Shown here one piece after another: positions 54,430 to 64,000 of a stretch of 64,000 nt of DNA. The translations under genes were made by a program, and so were the position numbers. The notes under the pieces were generated by a model. The model searched no databases and was not told where the DNA came from. It saw only the letters and a list, made by a program, of their open reading frames with translations. Position 1 is the stretch's first letter. Each line of letters opens with the position of its first letter. Source of the stretch: Bdellovibrionales bacterium (GTDB lineage Bacteria; Bdellovibrionota; Bdellovibrionia; Bdellovibrionales; UBA1609); assembly GCA_041690295.1 (NCBI GenBank), contig JAWLHR010000003.1:158305-222304 (forward strand), in the 5' to 3' direction.

Positions 54430-55239
54430 TCAAACCTTGTTGCGATCTCGACGTGGGTCGAGGTGCTCTCTCAATCCATCGCCAAGTAAATTGAAACCCA
54501 TAACCAAAACTATGATCGCGATGCCGGGAGCCAAAGCGATCATCGGGGCTTCCGTCATCACTCTACGTCCGGAGTTGAGCAGTGATCCCCAGGTCGGGAT
54601 GTTACTCGGGACCCCGAGACCGAGAAAACTTAAACCCGATTCCGAAATGATGGTTCCGGCCATGGCGAAAGTGGCTTGAATCAAAACCAATCCGAGTAAA
54701 TTCGGCCAGATGTGAATAATAATAATGCGTAAATTTCCAGCGCCCACCGCACGGGCGCTTTGCACGTGTTCACGTTGCTTTAAATGAAGAACCTCGCCGC
54801 GCACGAGGCGCGCGAAACTTGTCCAAGAAGTTACGCTCATCGCCAGAATCAGATTAGATACCGACGGACCAAGCACCGCCACCAGCGCCAGCGCGATCAA
54901 AAAACCGGGGAACGCATAAAAGATATCAGTGATACGCATAAAAATTTGTTCCCACCACCCGCCGAAATAGCCCGCCCAAGAACCAATAATGAGTCCGATC
55001 AGCGCGCTCACCGAGACCACACTGATCGCCACAACCAGGCTCACCCGCGAGCCGTAAATGAGTTTGGACAAAATATCACTGCCGTTTTCATCAAGACCCA
55101 GCCAGTGACGCGCGGAAGGTGGCTCAAGGCGATCAGGAAGCGACATCACCGAAGGATCATGCGGACTGATATATGGCGCGGCCACCGCCACCAGCGCGAT
55201 GGCAAGAACGATCACGGTGCCCGAGATGATCTTGATCAT
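54430..55239 (-). CDS. Peptide/nickel ABC permease (DppC/OppC-like)
   Basis: HWLGLDENG, EAA-type loop and ESGLSFLGLG...GDGLRE. Confidence 0.92.
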   Translation of the reverse strand: MIKIISGTVIVLAIALVAVAAPYISPHDPSVMSLPDRLEPPSARHWLGLDENGSDILSKLIYGSRVSLVVAISVVSVSALIGLIIGSWAGYFGGWWEQIFMRITDIFYAFPGFLIALALVAVLGPSVSNLILAMSVTSWTSFARLVRGEVLHLKQREHVQSARAVGAGNLRIIIIHIWPNLLGLVLIQATFAMAGTIISESGLSFLGLGVPSNIPTWGSLLNSGRRVMTEAPMIALAPGIAIIVLVMGFNLLGDGLREHLDPRRDRNKV

Positions 55240-56162
55240 GCCTCACCACCGGTGCGCACACGCGGATTCACCACGCCATACATCAGGTCGGTGGCAAGGT
55301 TGACCAAAACATAAATGGTGGCGACCAGCAAAACACAACCTTGCACTAAAGGATAATCCCGGCGTTGAATCGCGCTGTACATCAAAGATCCAATTCCCGG
55401 CCAGTCGAAGATCGTTTCGGTCACGACAGTGCCGGTGAGAAGCGCGCTCAACTGCAAGCCCACAACGGTGACGATTGGGATCAAAGCGTTGCGAAGCGCG
55501 TGTTTGAAGTGGATCACATGTTCAGCGGCCCCTTTGGCGCGGGCGGTGCGAATATAATCTTCCTGGAGCACTTCCAATAAGGAGGCGCGTGACATGCGCG
55601 CGATGACCGCGCCCAATGGGAACGCCAGGCTGCAGGCGGGCAGAACCAAATGCGCCCATCCGTCGCGATCACTGACGGGGAACCAATTCAGTTGAATGGC
55701 GAAAATGTAGATTAATATGGGCCCAAGGAACACGCCGGGGATGCTCATGCCCATCAGGGTGTAGATGTGGCAAACGCGATCACGCCAGCCGCCATGAACC
55801 GCGGAAGTGACTCCAAGAGGTAAACCGATAAAAAGAGCCAACGCGAGCGCGGCTATGCTCAGTTCAACAGTGGCCGGGAAGTGTTTGATGATTTCGTCTT
55901 TCACCGGGGTTCGAAGTGAAAGTGATCGGCCCAAATCCATGGCGGTGAGGTCGCTTAAGTAATTCAGATATTGGGTGATGAATGGTTGATCGAGACCGAG
56001 TTCTCTGCGGAGATTGGCTTTATCCTGGGCCGACGCTTGCTCGCCGAGCATCATTTCGACCGGATCGCCGGGAACAAAATGGAGCAGCATAAAGGTTAGC
56101 GTAATGACGCCCATCAAGGAGATGATCATCATCACCAGTCGCCTCATCGCGAAGCGAAGCAT
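55236..56162 (-). CDS. Peptide/nickel ABC permease (DppB/OppB-like)
   Basis: PGDP, GLDQP, YIRTARAKG and ETIFDWPGIG...RDYP motifs. Confidence 0.92.
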   Translation of the reverse strand: MLRFAMRRLVMMIISLMGVITLTFMLLHFVPGDPVEMMLGEQASAQDKANLRRELGLDQPFITQYLNYLSDLTAMDLGRSLSLRTPVKDEIIKHFPATVELSIAALALALFIGLPLGVTSAVHGGWRDRVCHIYTLMGMSIPGVFLGPILIYIFAIQLNWFPVSDRDGWAHLVLPACSLAFPLGAVIARMSRASLLEVLQEDYIRTARAKGAAEHVIHFKHALRNALIPIVTVVGLQLSALLTGTVVTETIFDWPGIGSLMYSAIQRRDYPLVQGCVLLVATIYVLVNLATDLMYGVVNPRVRTGGEA

Positions 56163-60673: not shown

Positions 60674-60889
60674 ATGTCAAAAGCTACAAAAATCGTAATT
60701 GCAGTTCTTAGTTTTTTTGGTCTGATGGGAATCGAATCAAAAGTAACGGTCAATAACGAGCTATCTCCTTCAACTGAATCGTTAGATACCGCAAGCCAGA
60801 AGGCGCAGATTCATGATGAAGGGCTGGACCTCGAAGTTTATCGGGGTCAGGTTTTTTATGAAGCAAGAGTTGACTGGCAAATCGAATAA
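60674..60889 (+). CDS. Putative precursor/signal peptide (71 aa)
   Basis: SD AGGGAG before ATG 60674. Basic then hydrophobic N-terminus, aromatic-rich C-terminus. Directly precedes and overlaps the HExxH gene. Confidence 0.65.
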   Translation: MSKATKIVIAVLSFFGLMGIESKVTVNNELSPSTESLDTASQKAQIHDEGLDLEVYRGQVFYEARVDWQIE

Positions 60890-61688
60890 GGAATTCATTC
60901 TAACGTCCATTCTAAAAGGGAGCTGGTTCGCAAATGAGCTGGCTCCCCGATACAAGGACCGTCTTTCCGGCGCGGTCGTCGGTCAAAATTCCGCGATTGA
61001 TCTGACTTCCCTGGCTTTAATCTACTACGGACATGTCCATAATCCTCGTGAGATCGACGGCCTGAGCGAACAGCGATTTTTCAATCCAAATCAAGCAAGC
61101 CGGGAATCCGTGTCACTCTTATCAAGACTCGAGAAAATGGTGTTCTCGGATAAAGAAGGCGCGTTGGTTGAGTTCTCGGAAGAGGAGTCGGGAAAATTGA
61201 CCGCAGCCGGAGACCAGTTATTGAAATGTTGGCCTGACATCGCCCGCTCTTTTCCGCTTTTGTCGATTTTTGTGCGGGTCACGAATGCACCCGTACTGGG
61301 CGCTTCTTTTCCTCATAGTTTTGGCGCGGTTTTTTATGGTGATAATCTTTCCCGTATATCCGTGGATGAACTCAGTGTTTCTCTCGCGCACGAACTGGCT
61401 CATCACGAGCTATTCCTGATTAATTTATACGACAGGCTGGTTGTTCCCGAATATGATCACAACCTAAAGTACGCGCCTCTTCAGAAAAAGGAGCGTCCAC
61501 CGATCGGGCGACTTCACGCCTTCTATGCGCTTTTTCGCATGATACAGGCGAGGAAAAAACTCGGACTCTCAATTCGCAACGAAATGGACTTGTTAGATGA
61601 AGCCCAAAATTCACTGGACGAAAAAGAATTTACGGAATATGCGTCGCAGATTAAGAACTCCGTTATGGAAGCGGTTACTCGTCTGTAG
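60858..61688 (+). CDS. aKG-HExxH-type peptide-modifying enzyme (putative beta-hydroxylase)
   Basis: GASFPHSFGAVF, LAHELAHHELF and YAPLQKKERPPIGRLHAFYA, which is the motif order typical of RiPP-associated HExxH domains. Confidence 0.82.
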   Translation: MKQELTGKSNKEFILTSILKGSWFANELAPRYKDRLSGAVVGQNSAIDLTSLALIYYGHVHNPREIDGLSEQRFFNPNQASRESVSLLSRLEKMVFSDKEGALVEFSEEESGKLTAAGDQLLKCWPDIARSFPLLSIFVRVTNAPVLGASFPHSFGAVFYGDNLSRISVDELSVSLAHELAHHELFLINLYDRLVVPEYDHNLKYAPLQKKERPPIGRLHAFYALFRMIQARKKLGLSIRNEMDLLDEAQNSLDEKEFTEYASQIKNSVMEAVTRL

Positions 61689-63120
61689 TTGCCTATTGAT
61701 ATTTCCTTATAAGGGAGAATCATTGAAAGAGTCGGCGCCCAAATCCTATTCGATCGGATATGTTCCACGGACTTTTCCAAGAGATCCTGTGGAAATAAAC
61801 CAATTTCTTGAACACATGTTTTTGGGACAAGTTTTAGAACCGATCGTGGATTCCGACCGCTACGGACAGGTGGTCGGGGGTGTTGCGAAAGCCTGGACAT
61901 TTGATGAATCCGGCAAACGGATGACGTTCACTCTCAACAAAGGAAAGGTTTTCTCAAACGGTGTTCCAGTCAGGCCCGCGGACGTGGTTTATAGCATCAA
62001 ACGCCATTTAGGGACTAAGTCGCAGTCGGCCCAGTTTTTGGCGGATATAGAAAGTATTTCGGAATCGGGCGACGACAAGGTTCTGGTCAAACTGAAAAAA
62101 TTCAATGTCGCGCTTATCAAAGCGCTTTCCCGGGATCAGCTCGGTGTTTTGCCGAAAAACTGGAAGTTCGATCTGAAATCAGTCGAGCCCTATATCGGGA
62201 CTGGGCCGTATCGGCTGATTCGGCAAGAGGGCGAGTGGTTCCTGGTTGCGAATCCGCATTATGAAAACAAAAACCAGCTGACCATTCCCAAGTGGAAAAT
62301 AAAATTCTTAAATAATTCGTTGAACTCAATCCCCGATGATTCGCTTCCCGATTATATTCCAGCCATCACCGGACTTTCTTTGGAAAAGGTTAAGAAGAAT
62401 AAGGATTTTAATCCAAAGGACTTCAAGGTTGAGCGAAATGTGAACTACTCACAGACGAGCTTTTGGATTTTTCCGACTTCGGATTATTTTAAAAACGAGG
62501 AGAACAGGTTTAAATTCGCGCGAATGTTTGATTCGGTGGTGGACAAATACAGTGCGGAGCAAGATCTAAAGCGCGCGACCGGTTTGATTCCGCTCGGGAT
62601 TTCCGGCCACAACACAACCAAAACGAGCCCGCCCGAAGGACAAGGGAAGCTGTCCCGCAAATTGATCGTGGCCAATCTCAAAGGCGTTTTTGAGCCCTTC
62701 TTTTCGTCGGAGGCCTTCAAAGAGTTCTTGAAAGCCAATGAAATCGAAGTGGAATATGTGCCCTTTGATCCGCCTACGCTTTATCAGCTTAAAGGAAAGA
62801 AAATCGATATCATCACCGGCAGTTGGGCCGGCGGGTTTTCCGATCCCACCGGTTTTTTGGGATTATTATCCCCCTTTTTGGGAATGGGTTTCGATGAATA
62901 TCTAGGTTCCATTTCGGCCGATCTTCAATCCGCCATAAGTGAGTCAAATTGGAGTTCACGGGCTGAGAAGTTCAAGCGGTTCGATGCAAATCTGGTCAAA
63001 AGCGGATTGTTAATTCCCGGCTGGAAAGTTCCTACTTATACGGTGATCAAATCACCGCTCAAATACAAGGAAGTGCAGAACCGCTACACCGAGCGATTCA
63101 TCAATGTTACCGCACAATAG
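61639..63120 (+). CDS. ABC-type substrate-binding protein, family 5 (peptide-binding fold), orphan
   Basis: GVAKAWTFDESGKRMTFTL...FSNGVPVRPADVVYSI and IGTGPY. Start uncertain (61597, 61639 or later). Confidence 0.85.
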   Translation: MRRRLRTPLWKRLLVCSCLLIFPYKGESLKESAPKSYSIGYVPRTFPRDPVEINQFLEHMFLGQVLEPIVDSDRYGQVVGGVAKAWTFDESGKRMTFTLNKGKVFSNGVPVRPADVVYSIKRHLGTKSQSAQFLADIESISESGDDKVLVKLKKFNVALIKALSRDQLGVLPKNWKFDLKSVEPYIGTGPYRLIRQEGEWFLVANPHYENKNQLTIPKWKIKFLNNSLNSIPDDSLPDYIPAITGLSLEKVKKNKDFNPKDFKVERNVNYSQTSFWIFPTSDYFKNEENRFKFARMFDSVVDKYSAEQDLKRATGLIPLGISGHNTTKTSPPEGQGKLSRKLIVANLKGVFEPFFSSEAFKEFLKANEIEVEYVPFDPPTLYQLKGKKIDIITGSWAGGFSDPTGFLGLLSPFLGMGFDEYLGSISADLQSAISESNWSSRAEKFKRFDANLVKSGLLIPGWKVPTYTVIKSPLKYKEVQNRYTERFINVTAQ

Positions 63121-63902
63121 AAAGTTCCGATTTCGGACCGTTTTGATGTTTGTTGGCGCGGTGGTGTCCAGCATCTACTTTTTGTTCTCATTTTCCATTC
63201 AAATCTATTCGGCATACAAAAGCATCGTAAGTGAACGTCAAAATTACCGGCTTATAATTTCCAAATCCCTGCTGGACTCCATCCGGCAGCCTTTAATCCA
63301 AGGGTCTTTTTTTGAAGTGAAGGCACGCCTTCAGCACAGCCTGGACAGGCAGGAATTGAGCTGTGTCGAAATGACTTTGGATTCATTCGAGTTTAAGGAC
63401 TGCCGGACTCCGAATCGGCGTAATCTCGTCTGGGAAGATTTAGATATTTCTTCGTTCGAAGAGATTGAGGGCTATCAAAGATCAAGCATCAGGATTGGAT
63501 TTGACGAGTCAAATTTAAAGGCCATAGTCGCCCGGCAGGCTTTAATTGTAATTTCGATTTCGTTAATCGGAACCTTACTTCTTTTGTTCGGGATAAATTT
63601 AGTTTTCCGGTTGATTGGCCGGGAAATGAACCAACTCATGGGCACTATCGCAAAGAGCGGTGGTACCCCATATGTCTTTAAGACGCTGGAATTCGACGTT
63701 CTTCGTAAGAGATTAGAGGAATTGTTTTCCGTCCGCCTGAAACTCACGCAGGCCGAGGCCTTTTCGAATTTGGCAAAGCAAGTTGCTCATGACATTCGAT
63801 CTCCTTTATCGACTTTAAAAATTTTGTCGGCAAAGGACGTCGTGTCCGCCGAAGAGAATGACCTGCTCAGACTCGCGTGTGAACGGCTTGAGTCGATTGC
63901 CA
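63104..63902 (+). CDS. Membrane sensor histidine kinase, N-terminal part (probably interrupted)
   Basis: My translation from ATG 63104 gives two TMs flanking a periplasmic loop, then H-box LAKQVAHDIRSPLSTL. The frame stays open to the window end but loses kinase character after ERLESIA. Confidence 0.8.
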
Positions 63903-64000
63903 GGCCGCGTCCCGTTCTTGGTGGAGATTGGCGAGGGTTCGCCAGGACAGGTAAATCTCCCATAATTCTTACGCCGCCACCTCGTCAAGTTCGAGTTGGA
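63903..64000 (-). mobile_element. Probable terminus of an IS256-like insertion sequence
   Basis: GGCCGCGTCCCGTTCTTGGTGGAGATT resembles IS256-family termini as I recall them. A minus-strand frame ends QLELDEVAA* at 63969. Confidence 0.45.

Follow-up and report, generated by a model that had tools for sequence, protein, structure and literature searches.

A conserved four-gene cassette of Bdellovibrionota predicted to make, export and sense an oxidatively modified peptide

Four genes at the end of a 64,000-nucleotide stretch of DNA from a Bdellovibrionales bacterium (GCA_041690295.1, contig JAWLHR010000003.1, positions 158,305 to 222,304 of the forward strand; hereafter the window) encode a small precursor peptide, a stand-alone aKG-HExxH peptide oxygenase, a family-5 solute-binding protein and a sensor histidine kinase, and belong to a real and conserved cassette that is apparently undescribed. 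Its most probable role is to produce, export and detect a peptide modified by oxidation, a reading to which a probability of about 0.62 is assigned. The gene set and its conservation, the family of the enzyme, a unit of ~21 residues in the precursor, two layouts and a break in the window's kinase gene can be read from sequence, and from these we infer that the binding protein and kinase sense the peptide. A literature search of listings and abstract openings, mostly outside subscription papers, found no description of the cassette layout, in agreement with an initial annotation of the window, made from its letters alone, which had proposed such a circuit and knew of no described system like it.

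The cassette and its genomic context

Contig C3 of the host genome, G000, ends with the window. The precursor gene (60674..60889, + strand) encodes 71 residues with a signal-like N-terminus, a short spacer and a conserved C-terminal unit (60824..60886, + strand; residues 51-71) that includes A64-R65-V66-D67. It is followed by the genes for the peptide oxygenase (60858..61688, + strand; 276 residues, TIGR04267, ChlH-like fold) and the family-5 binding protein (61639..63120, + strand; PF00496, two candidate starts), and by the N-terminal 266 codons only of the kinase gene (63104..63901, + strand), delimited by alignment with whole relatives and by hydropathy. The first three genes are present as the initial annotation had described them, with HELAHH and RPPIGRLHA motifs in the enzyme, a TIGR04267 score of 50.2 bits and an SBP_bac_5 match of E = 1.2e-25 for the binding protein. 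The mutual overlap of genes claimed there needs correcting: each gene overlaps only its next neighbour, and the overlap of the enzyme and binding-protein genes exists only if the upstream ATG at 61639 is used. The stretch is indeed AT-rich, with a GC content of 0.462 against 0.525 +/- 0.019 across 881 genome windows, which places it in the lowest 1%. As also stated there, the window cassette contains no radical SAM gene and no permease adjoins it. The nearest dppBC-like pair lies 5.4 kb away on the opposite strand.

Conservation of the gene neighbourhood

Relatives of the enzyme were collected from 33 loci in genomes, mostly titled Bdellovibrionota, and 32 loci in metagenomes; of 401 genomes of the phylum, 31 have enzyme matches, and the more distant enzymes among these were excluded from counting. 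The counting set consisted of the window, the 65 loci and four fetched regions (L095, L096, L097 and L099), which clustering at 90% identity reduced to 51 clusters. Of these 51, 46 contain a precursor, two of them (L045 and L128) recognised by eye; of the other five, L037 is a fragment and the remaining four are truncated at contig ends. The binding protein directly follows the enzyme in 38 of the 45 clusters with at least 300 bases downstream, one of the seven misses being a split gene (L039), and the kinase follows the binding protein in all 28 clusters with at least 2.5 kb downstream. No DppB or DppC match was found in any of the 69 relative loci, and the 51 clusters hold a single radical SAM match, in L096 and not adjacent. 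Genes for sigma-54 activators adjoin many of the relative loci. The co-occurrence check proposed in the initial annotation was thus borne out, and so was its co-divergence check: distances between enzymes, binding proteins, kinase N-termini and precursors correlate over 20 loci (Mantel r 0.83-0.91), a correlation for which shared descent alone would suffice.

Conjugation genes lie within the fetched flanks of 10 of the 51 clusters. In L082 (6502-19901), genes for a sigma-54 activator, precursor, enzyme, binding protein and kinase lie in this order and are followed by those for a sigma-70 region-4 protein, for TrbC and for a VirB4-like ATPase, and by a TrbL match that is weak. The cassettes of L031, L041, L044, L092 and L111 were likewise seen directly upstream of or near conjugation genes (TrbC, VirB4-like, coupling protein). 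In an HExxH group of more distant kinship, the gene order is activator, secreted protein of 155-163 residues, binding protein, enzyme and kinase, and its copy in L092 adjoins a coupling protein. Queries with TrwB, VirB4 and TrbC found no conjugation genes in G000, so the idea that the circuit controls transfer does not apply to the window copy.

The precursor peptide and its predicted routes of export

The window precursor gene is preceded by a strong Shine-Dalgarno sequence. A profile built without the window open reading frame (ORF) placed it at the top of 27,262 small ORFs (E = 0.044), and a second profile, built from eight precursors of 20-24 residues from other loci, ranked it first of 45,813 ORFs (E = 0.006); by these ranks, the small ORF is more than a chance reading frame. 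Pfam and NCBIfam gave no family over cut-off for this precursor, NCBIfam gave none for precursors of all types (a single sub-cut-off match, E = 0.002), and a search of the ESM Atlas with one long precursor gave a best score of 0.78 and no family. A terminator-like hairpin with a T run was noted at 60827-60848, inside the 3' part of the precursor gene and just before the enzyme start; two terminator-like sites were found against 0.5 +/- 0.6 in shuffled sequence.

Long precursors of the window type (70-108 residues) occur in 29 clusters, and in all 20 that were checked a basic start is combined with a hydrophobic stretch, in one case after a longer N-terminus; the signal-like call follows a rule of charge and hydropathy. 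Conservation is concentrated in the last ~21 residues (L51, D/N52, L53, I/V55, F/Y56, F61 and D67), with D67 in 23 of 23 alignment rows and F61 in 21 of 23; the regular-expression motif for the peptide was defined after the peptides had been seen and is not a blind test. In all 10 clusters with a kinase fused to a long membrane domain resembling the major facilitator superfamily (MFS), the conserved unit alone makes up the whole gene, of 19-24 codons and signal-less, mostly behind a clear Shine-Dalgarno sequence; genes this short would be missed by gene callers. The fused kinases, of 870-1170 residues, are exemplified by L040 (8946-11954), L049 (6841-10212), L050 (8947-11571) and L097 (5459-8074), each beside a 19-24-codon precursor gene. 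Their extra domain is called MFS-like from a stand-alone counterpart in L090 that matches MFS_1, the fused copies having given no Pfam MFS match. Conversely, five MFS queries had no match in 42 long-precursor loci, several of which have short flanks. That a Sec signal and an MFS exporter replace one another while the unit stays is the best evidence that the unit must leave the cytoplasm.

The unit is also multiplied. It is repeated seven to eight times in the signal-bearing precursors of L095 (10429-11316) and L096 (10269-11057), 3' of which lie first an NAD-dependent epimerase/dehydratase gene and then those for enzyme, binding protein and kinase, and twice in L051 and L098, which have an MFS gene and no sensor. 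Such multi-core precursors, and the sensor-less version in L051, could fit an antimicrobial or competition factor whose binding protein and kinase serve autoregulation or protection, by a logic like that of nisin; enzymes and exporters of peptides that are ribosomally synthesised and then modified post-translationally (RiPPs) are typical of bacteriocin clusters. However, the cassette has one small tailoring enzyme and a short acidic core, and neither immunity nor ABC exporter genes were found in the long-precursor loci, which makes this explanation improbable.

The composition of the unit bears on a further possibility, that the modified peptide is a metal chelator and that its metal-loaded form is what the binding protein and kinase detect, and so metal status instead of cell density. 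The unit is acidic with an invariant Asp, RiPP chelators exported by Sec exist (bufferins; passages of PMC12452194), nickel and staphylopine binders are among the binding protein's best NCBIfam matches, every one of which falls far below cut-off, and L021, L023 and L105 lie, as judged by eye, beside genes resembling metal-efflux genes. The unit, however, has no conserved Cys or His, no relative has an import permease, and unrelated enzymes and peptides share the same sensor layout (see below), so that a chelator is unlikely.

The peptide oxygenase and its predicted chemistry

The enzyme exceeds the curated TIGR04267 cut-off of 40 bits and is the sole TIGR04267 match in G000. Its residues H178, E179, H182 and H220 are invariant in a 24-row alignment, and its HExxH motif and distal His align with those of ChlH (PDB 8s5f), to which a profile match was obtained (E = 1.4e-6). 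A structural model of the enzyme (predicted local distance difference test score, pLDDT, 93) was compared with known structures using Foldseek, and the only matches under 1e-3 were ChlH (8s5f; E = 2.7e-8, TM 0.61) and SjiH (3e-5). A plain zincin protease fold was rejected, the best Zn peptidase reaching only 6e-3 and TM 0.24. An enzyme tree was made in a quick version, in which the window sequence sits on a long branch, and no order of events was drawn from it.

The aKG-HExxH domain with its distal His and ChlH-like fold is shared with ChlH, PflC/PosC (PMC12636437), PesO (PMC13060819) and BpmH (PMC12257519), as far as the accessible passages of these papers go. According to those passages, PosC and PflC oxidise the Ala of ARMD at the alpha carbon, so that the chain is cut and an amide is left, whereas at that position Gly is partly cut, Val is beta-hydroxylated and Ser is turned into an aldehyde, none of R, M and D being individually required (PMC12636437); the residue that PesO hydroxylates is Pro18, which precedes R(V/T)DN (PMC13060819); and ChlH hydroxylates Asp and His (cited in PMC12636437 and PMC13060819). 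The cassette precursors end in X-R-hydrophobic-D, like the ARMD of the Pfl and Pos precursors and the P-R(V/T)-DN of the Pes precursor. The window site is A64-R65-V66-D67, and position 64 of the tiny precursors is occupied by A, S or P.

By analogy with these enzymes, the residue before R-x-D (Ala64 in the window) is the leading candidate for oxidation, at about even odds, and the invariant Asp is the second, beta-hydroxylation of Asp67 being the less likely of the two; that the enzyme does something else is unlikely. The initial annotation had proposed a hydroxylated product, to be sought as a shift of +16 Da, but the product need not be of that kind, because PosC and PflC cleave oxidatively at an Ala before R-x-D. 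Given the likeness of the A-R-V-D end to the sites oxidised by PosC and PesO, amide-forming cleavage is as plausible as a +16 Da shift. The mass change computed for Ala64 cleavage of the window peptide is -998.5 Da, and the enzyme might be active and yet go unnoticed in a screen limited to +16 Da.

The cassettes also differ from the ChlH, PflC/PosC, PesO and BpmH clusters, within the limits of the passages cited above. The cassette enzyme is the sole tailoring enzyme, its precursor either starts with a signal-like stretch or is no more than a 20-mer and has no nitrile-hydratase-type leader, and it is linked to a binding protein and kinase, a linkage that the cited passages do not report. Radical SAM cyclophane (triceptide) clusters may carry an HExxH protein too, but no radical SAM enzyme is fused or adjacent to that of the window cassette.

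The binding protein

The binding protein is far from all solved structures (best E = 4e-23). In a FastTree phylogeny with long branches, the binding proteins of both layouts of the HExxH cassette form one clade with a support of 100, those of five YcaO cassettes form another, and the permease-linked binding proteins of G000 group apart, with other unlinked binding proteins of that genome falling inside the permease-linked group. Complex prediction for the binding protein and precursor residues 38-71 gave a score of 0.00, with controls not folded, and was used neither way.

This placement bears on whether the binding protein feeds a transporter encoded elsewhere and has the kinase only as a neighbour. 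A dppBC-like permease pair at 54430-56162 of the window has no adjoining binding protein and could be its partner, and a distant relative (E = 2e-8) is PrgZ, a pheromone-binding family-5 protein that uses the Opp permease. Set against this are the linkage to a kinase and never to a permease in relatives, by the counts given above, and the position of the binding protein outside the permease-linked group where other unlinked binding proteins of G000 lie; a remote transporter is the least probable of the explanations weighed here. In both respects, absence of linkage to a permease or ATPase and membership of a separate clade, the cassette protein differs from those of Opp/Dpp ABC importers.

The start of the binding-protein gene is ambiguous. 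The product of ATG 61639 has a signal-like stretch behind a weak Shine-Dalgarno sequence, whereas the in-frame TTG 61723 has the strongest Shine-Dalgarno sequence of the gene and would give a product without that stretch. A second Shine-Dalgarno sequence and ATG inside the signal-coding stretch occur in 13 of 14 binding-protein genes, whereas in the same loci 5 of 14 precursors have them but none of the 14 kinases and none of the 14 enzymes; as these loci are kin, the counts are not independent; an internal Shine-Dalgarno sequence and start were found in 8 of 476 signal-like genes of G000. The internal start lies ahead of the domain's first strand. Since both starts seem to be conserved, two forms of the protein are suggested, and the binding protein may also, or in the window mainly, be made without a signal peptide. 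The conserved second Shine-Dalgarno sequence and start codon, which would yield a cytoplasmic form, were noted in the binding-protein genes of L019, L024, L031 and others.

These internal starts would suit a circuit that is partly or wholly intracellular, with the signal-less binding protein holding the peptide in the cytoplasm as a chaperone, buffer or enzyme co-factor. The upstream start, however, is kept as well, with its basic and hydrophobic residues and its overlap with the enzyme stop codon, the kinase has a periplasmic domain, and every precursor has an export route where one is visible. An intracellular circuit is accordingly judged quite unlikely.

The kinase, its break and the repeated element

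The kinase fragment has two hydrophobic segments, at about residues 12-32 and 140-172, an H-box with H229, and a periplasmic domain with a conserved Cys pair. It aligns with whole relatives of 426-575 residues up to Ala266 and then stops. The initial annotation had rightly seen a two-transmembrane kinase with an H-box and had missed that the gene is cut at codon 266. From 63903 to 64000, where the contig ends inside the element, the 98 bases are identical to the end of contig C26 (98/98), and the 12-base terminus of this element recurs near the ends of contigs C1, C13 and C16. In runs X2 and X5, the element end is joined to other flanks at 63902/63903, and one contig of run X1, which may not be independent of the assembly, crosses 63902/63903 without mismatch. 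The element had no match in plasmids and no database named the repeat; it is likely to be an insertion sequence. Most of the 30 contigs of G000 were seen to end in one of several repeated elements, and these repeated contig ends suggest a recent spread of insertion sequences in the genome.

The ATPase half of the kinase was found neither at contig ends nor genome-wide in the assembly, where only intact paralogues matched, and it may have been deleted or left unassembled. A whole sensor, comprising an H-box, an ATPase domain and a cognate regulator, is thus not encoded in the window, whereas relatives have HATPase_c domains and sigma-54 activators. Since its kinase gene stops at codon 266, the window copy of the cassette is likely dead, or unable to signal, and the broken kinase makes it a poor test object.

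The proposed circuit and known systems

For intact copies of the cassette, the following circuit is proposed. A cytoplasmic Fe/2-oxoglutarate enzyme would oxidise the precursor near its C-terminus; if the PosC precedent holds, oxidation of Ala64 would leave a Glu63-amide and release a pyruvoyl fragment. The peptide would then exit via Sec, for signal-bearing precursors, or via an MFS exporter, for bare ones, and would probably be trimmed. The periplasmic form of the binding protein would bind the peptide and switch the kinase, as CBP does ChiS, and the kinase would phosphorylate a regulator, in many relatives a sigma-54 activator encoded next to it. DNA transfer may be what the circuit controls on some conjugative elements.

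Several observations weigh against the make, export and sense circuit. In the window, the kinase lacks its ATPase half and no regulator adjoins it. No binding protein is present in L097 and L099, which have the MFS-kinase, or in L045, L051, L116 and L128, where no kinase was seen, so the sensor does not accompany every enzyme and precursor. Of 23 long precursors, only 11 have Ala at position 64 and 15 have Arg65, and as PosC has no need of R, M or D, the chemistry is not fixed. The internal start of the window's binding-protein gene is the better one, and the periplasmic location of that protein is not certain. A protease that would release the core is not encoded, and a pherotype test found that close pairs keep the same or a similar core, with no sign of fast pherotype diversification. 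The enzyme also diverges as fast as the peptide, so that kin-specific diversification is not evident. Of the circuit as first annotated, the neighbourhood predictions stood, and its kinase, product and binding protein are qualified as described.

The logic of the cassette joins two known kinds of system, the peptide pheromone systems of Gram-positive bacteria and receptors made of a binding protein and a kinase. Kinase-mediated signalling by modified peptides is a Gram-positive theme: in ComQXPA, agr and NisRK, an enzyme, precursor, kinase and regulator lie in one operon and the modified peptide is secreted. The cassette differs in its diderm host, separate binding protein, oxidative chemistry and exchangeable enzyme slot, and its four proteins gave no Pfam or NCBIfam match to ComQXPA or agr families. 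In LuxP-LuxQ-LuxO, a periplasmic binding protein is the receptor for a membrane kinase, and LuxO parallels the sigma-54 activator output of many cassette relatives. CBP is a family-5 binding protein, a point that the passages at hand of the CBP-ChiS paper do not show. In Vibrio cholerae, CBP directly controls the kinase ChiS, according to those passages (PMC12704726), and in the cassette the genes for a binding protein and for a membrane kinase with a periplasmic domain are linked in 28/28 clusters. Unlike in CBP-ChiS and LuxP-LuxQ, the ligand would be a self-made ribosomal peptide from the same operon and not a sugar or autoinducer-2 (AI-2), and the kinase is simple and short. Bufferins resemble the long precursors in that a RiPP precursor with a Sec signal peptide is modified in the cytoplasm before export, by an MNIO acting on Cys and with copper chelation as the outcome, in the passages seen (PMC12452194); the cassette unit has no Cys and has a sensor pair attached.

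If the proposed circuit is true, the cassette would be a diderm version of modified-peptide signalling that combines RiPP enzymes with a periplasmic binding protein, and would give a biological role to the recently found aKG-HExxH enzymes, to whose products the cited papers, in the passages available, assign none. It would also open a route into cell-cell and mobile-element communication in Bdellovibrionota. The circuit is directly testable in the shortest cassettes, which have a precursor of 20 residues together with a single enzyme and a single soluble receptor.

Binding-protein and kinase loci with other enzymes

The kinase family is present in 33 of 41 genomes of the order. From 99 kinase matches outside G000, 40 regions were chosen by best E-values, short contigs and two window-type matches being skipped. 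A family-5 binding protein lies upstream on the same strand in 16 of the 40 regions, the other 24 being without this layout. Twelve have both the binding protein and, as judged by eye, a small protein with a signal-like start. An enzyme can be recognised in nine of these twelve: it is YcaO-like in six (one of them weak), and radical SAM, DUF4135 and HExxH in one each.

These loci could be read as a plug-in family of peptide languages in Bdellovibrionota, a tentative idea that is less likely than the circuit itself. One receptor design, of a family-5 binding protein, a short kinase and often a sigma-54 activator, would be combined with exchangeable RiPP enzymes (aKG-HExxH, YcaO-like, radical SAM, LanM-like, MNIO). 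The HExxH branch would use an amidated or hydroxylated signal of ~20 residues, exported by Sec or by a kinase-fused MFS domain and gating DNA transfer on conjugative elements, and the signal-less form of the binding protein would tune the circuit from inside.

Three paralogous loci with a binding protein, a kinase and another RiPP enzyme lie in G000. L133 (C4:133462-137293) holds a 54-residue signal-bearing ORF, a family-5 binding protein, a YcaO-like gene (under cut-off) and an intact kinase, and L134 (C19:21762-25920) a radical SAM/SPASM gene, a 101-residue signal-bearing ORF, a binding protein that is seemingly split (406 + 123 residues) and a kinase. In L136 (C2:28440-35206), where no precursor was identified, a methyltransferase, binding protein, MFS-like gene and kinase lie beside a divergent RiPP C-methyltransferase (TIGR03975, over cut-off). 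Two more loci of G000 were noted: in L135 (C14:72669-75572), the kinase gene behind the binding-protein gene is split (194 + 292 residues), and L137 (C4:30576-33041) has an 86-residue signal-bearing ORF and a hydrolase, divergent from a kinase of the window kinase's family. In L147, L148, L149, L154 and L161, kinases of this family were also observed behind other genes that look biosynthetic, for FeeM, a haem-oxygenase-like protein, an MNIO, a radical SAM enzyme fused to a binding protein, and a fatty acid desaturase.

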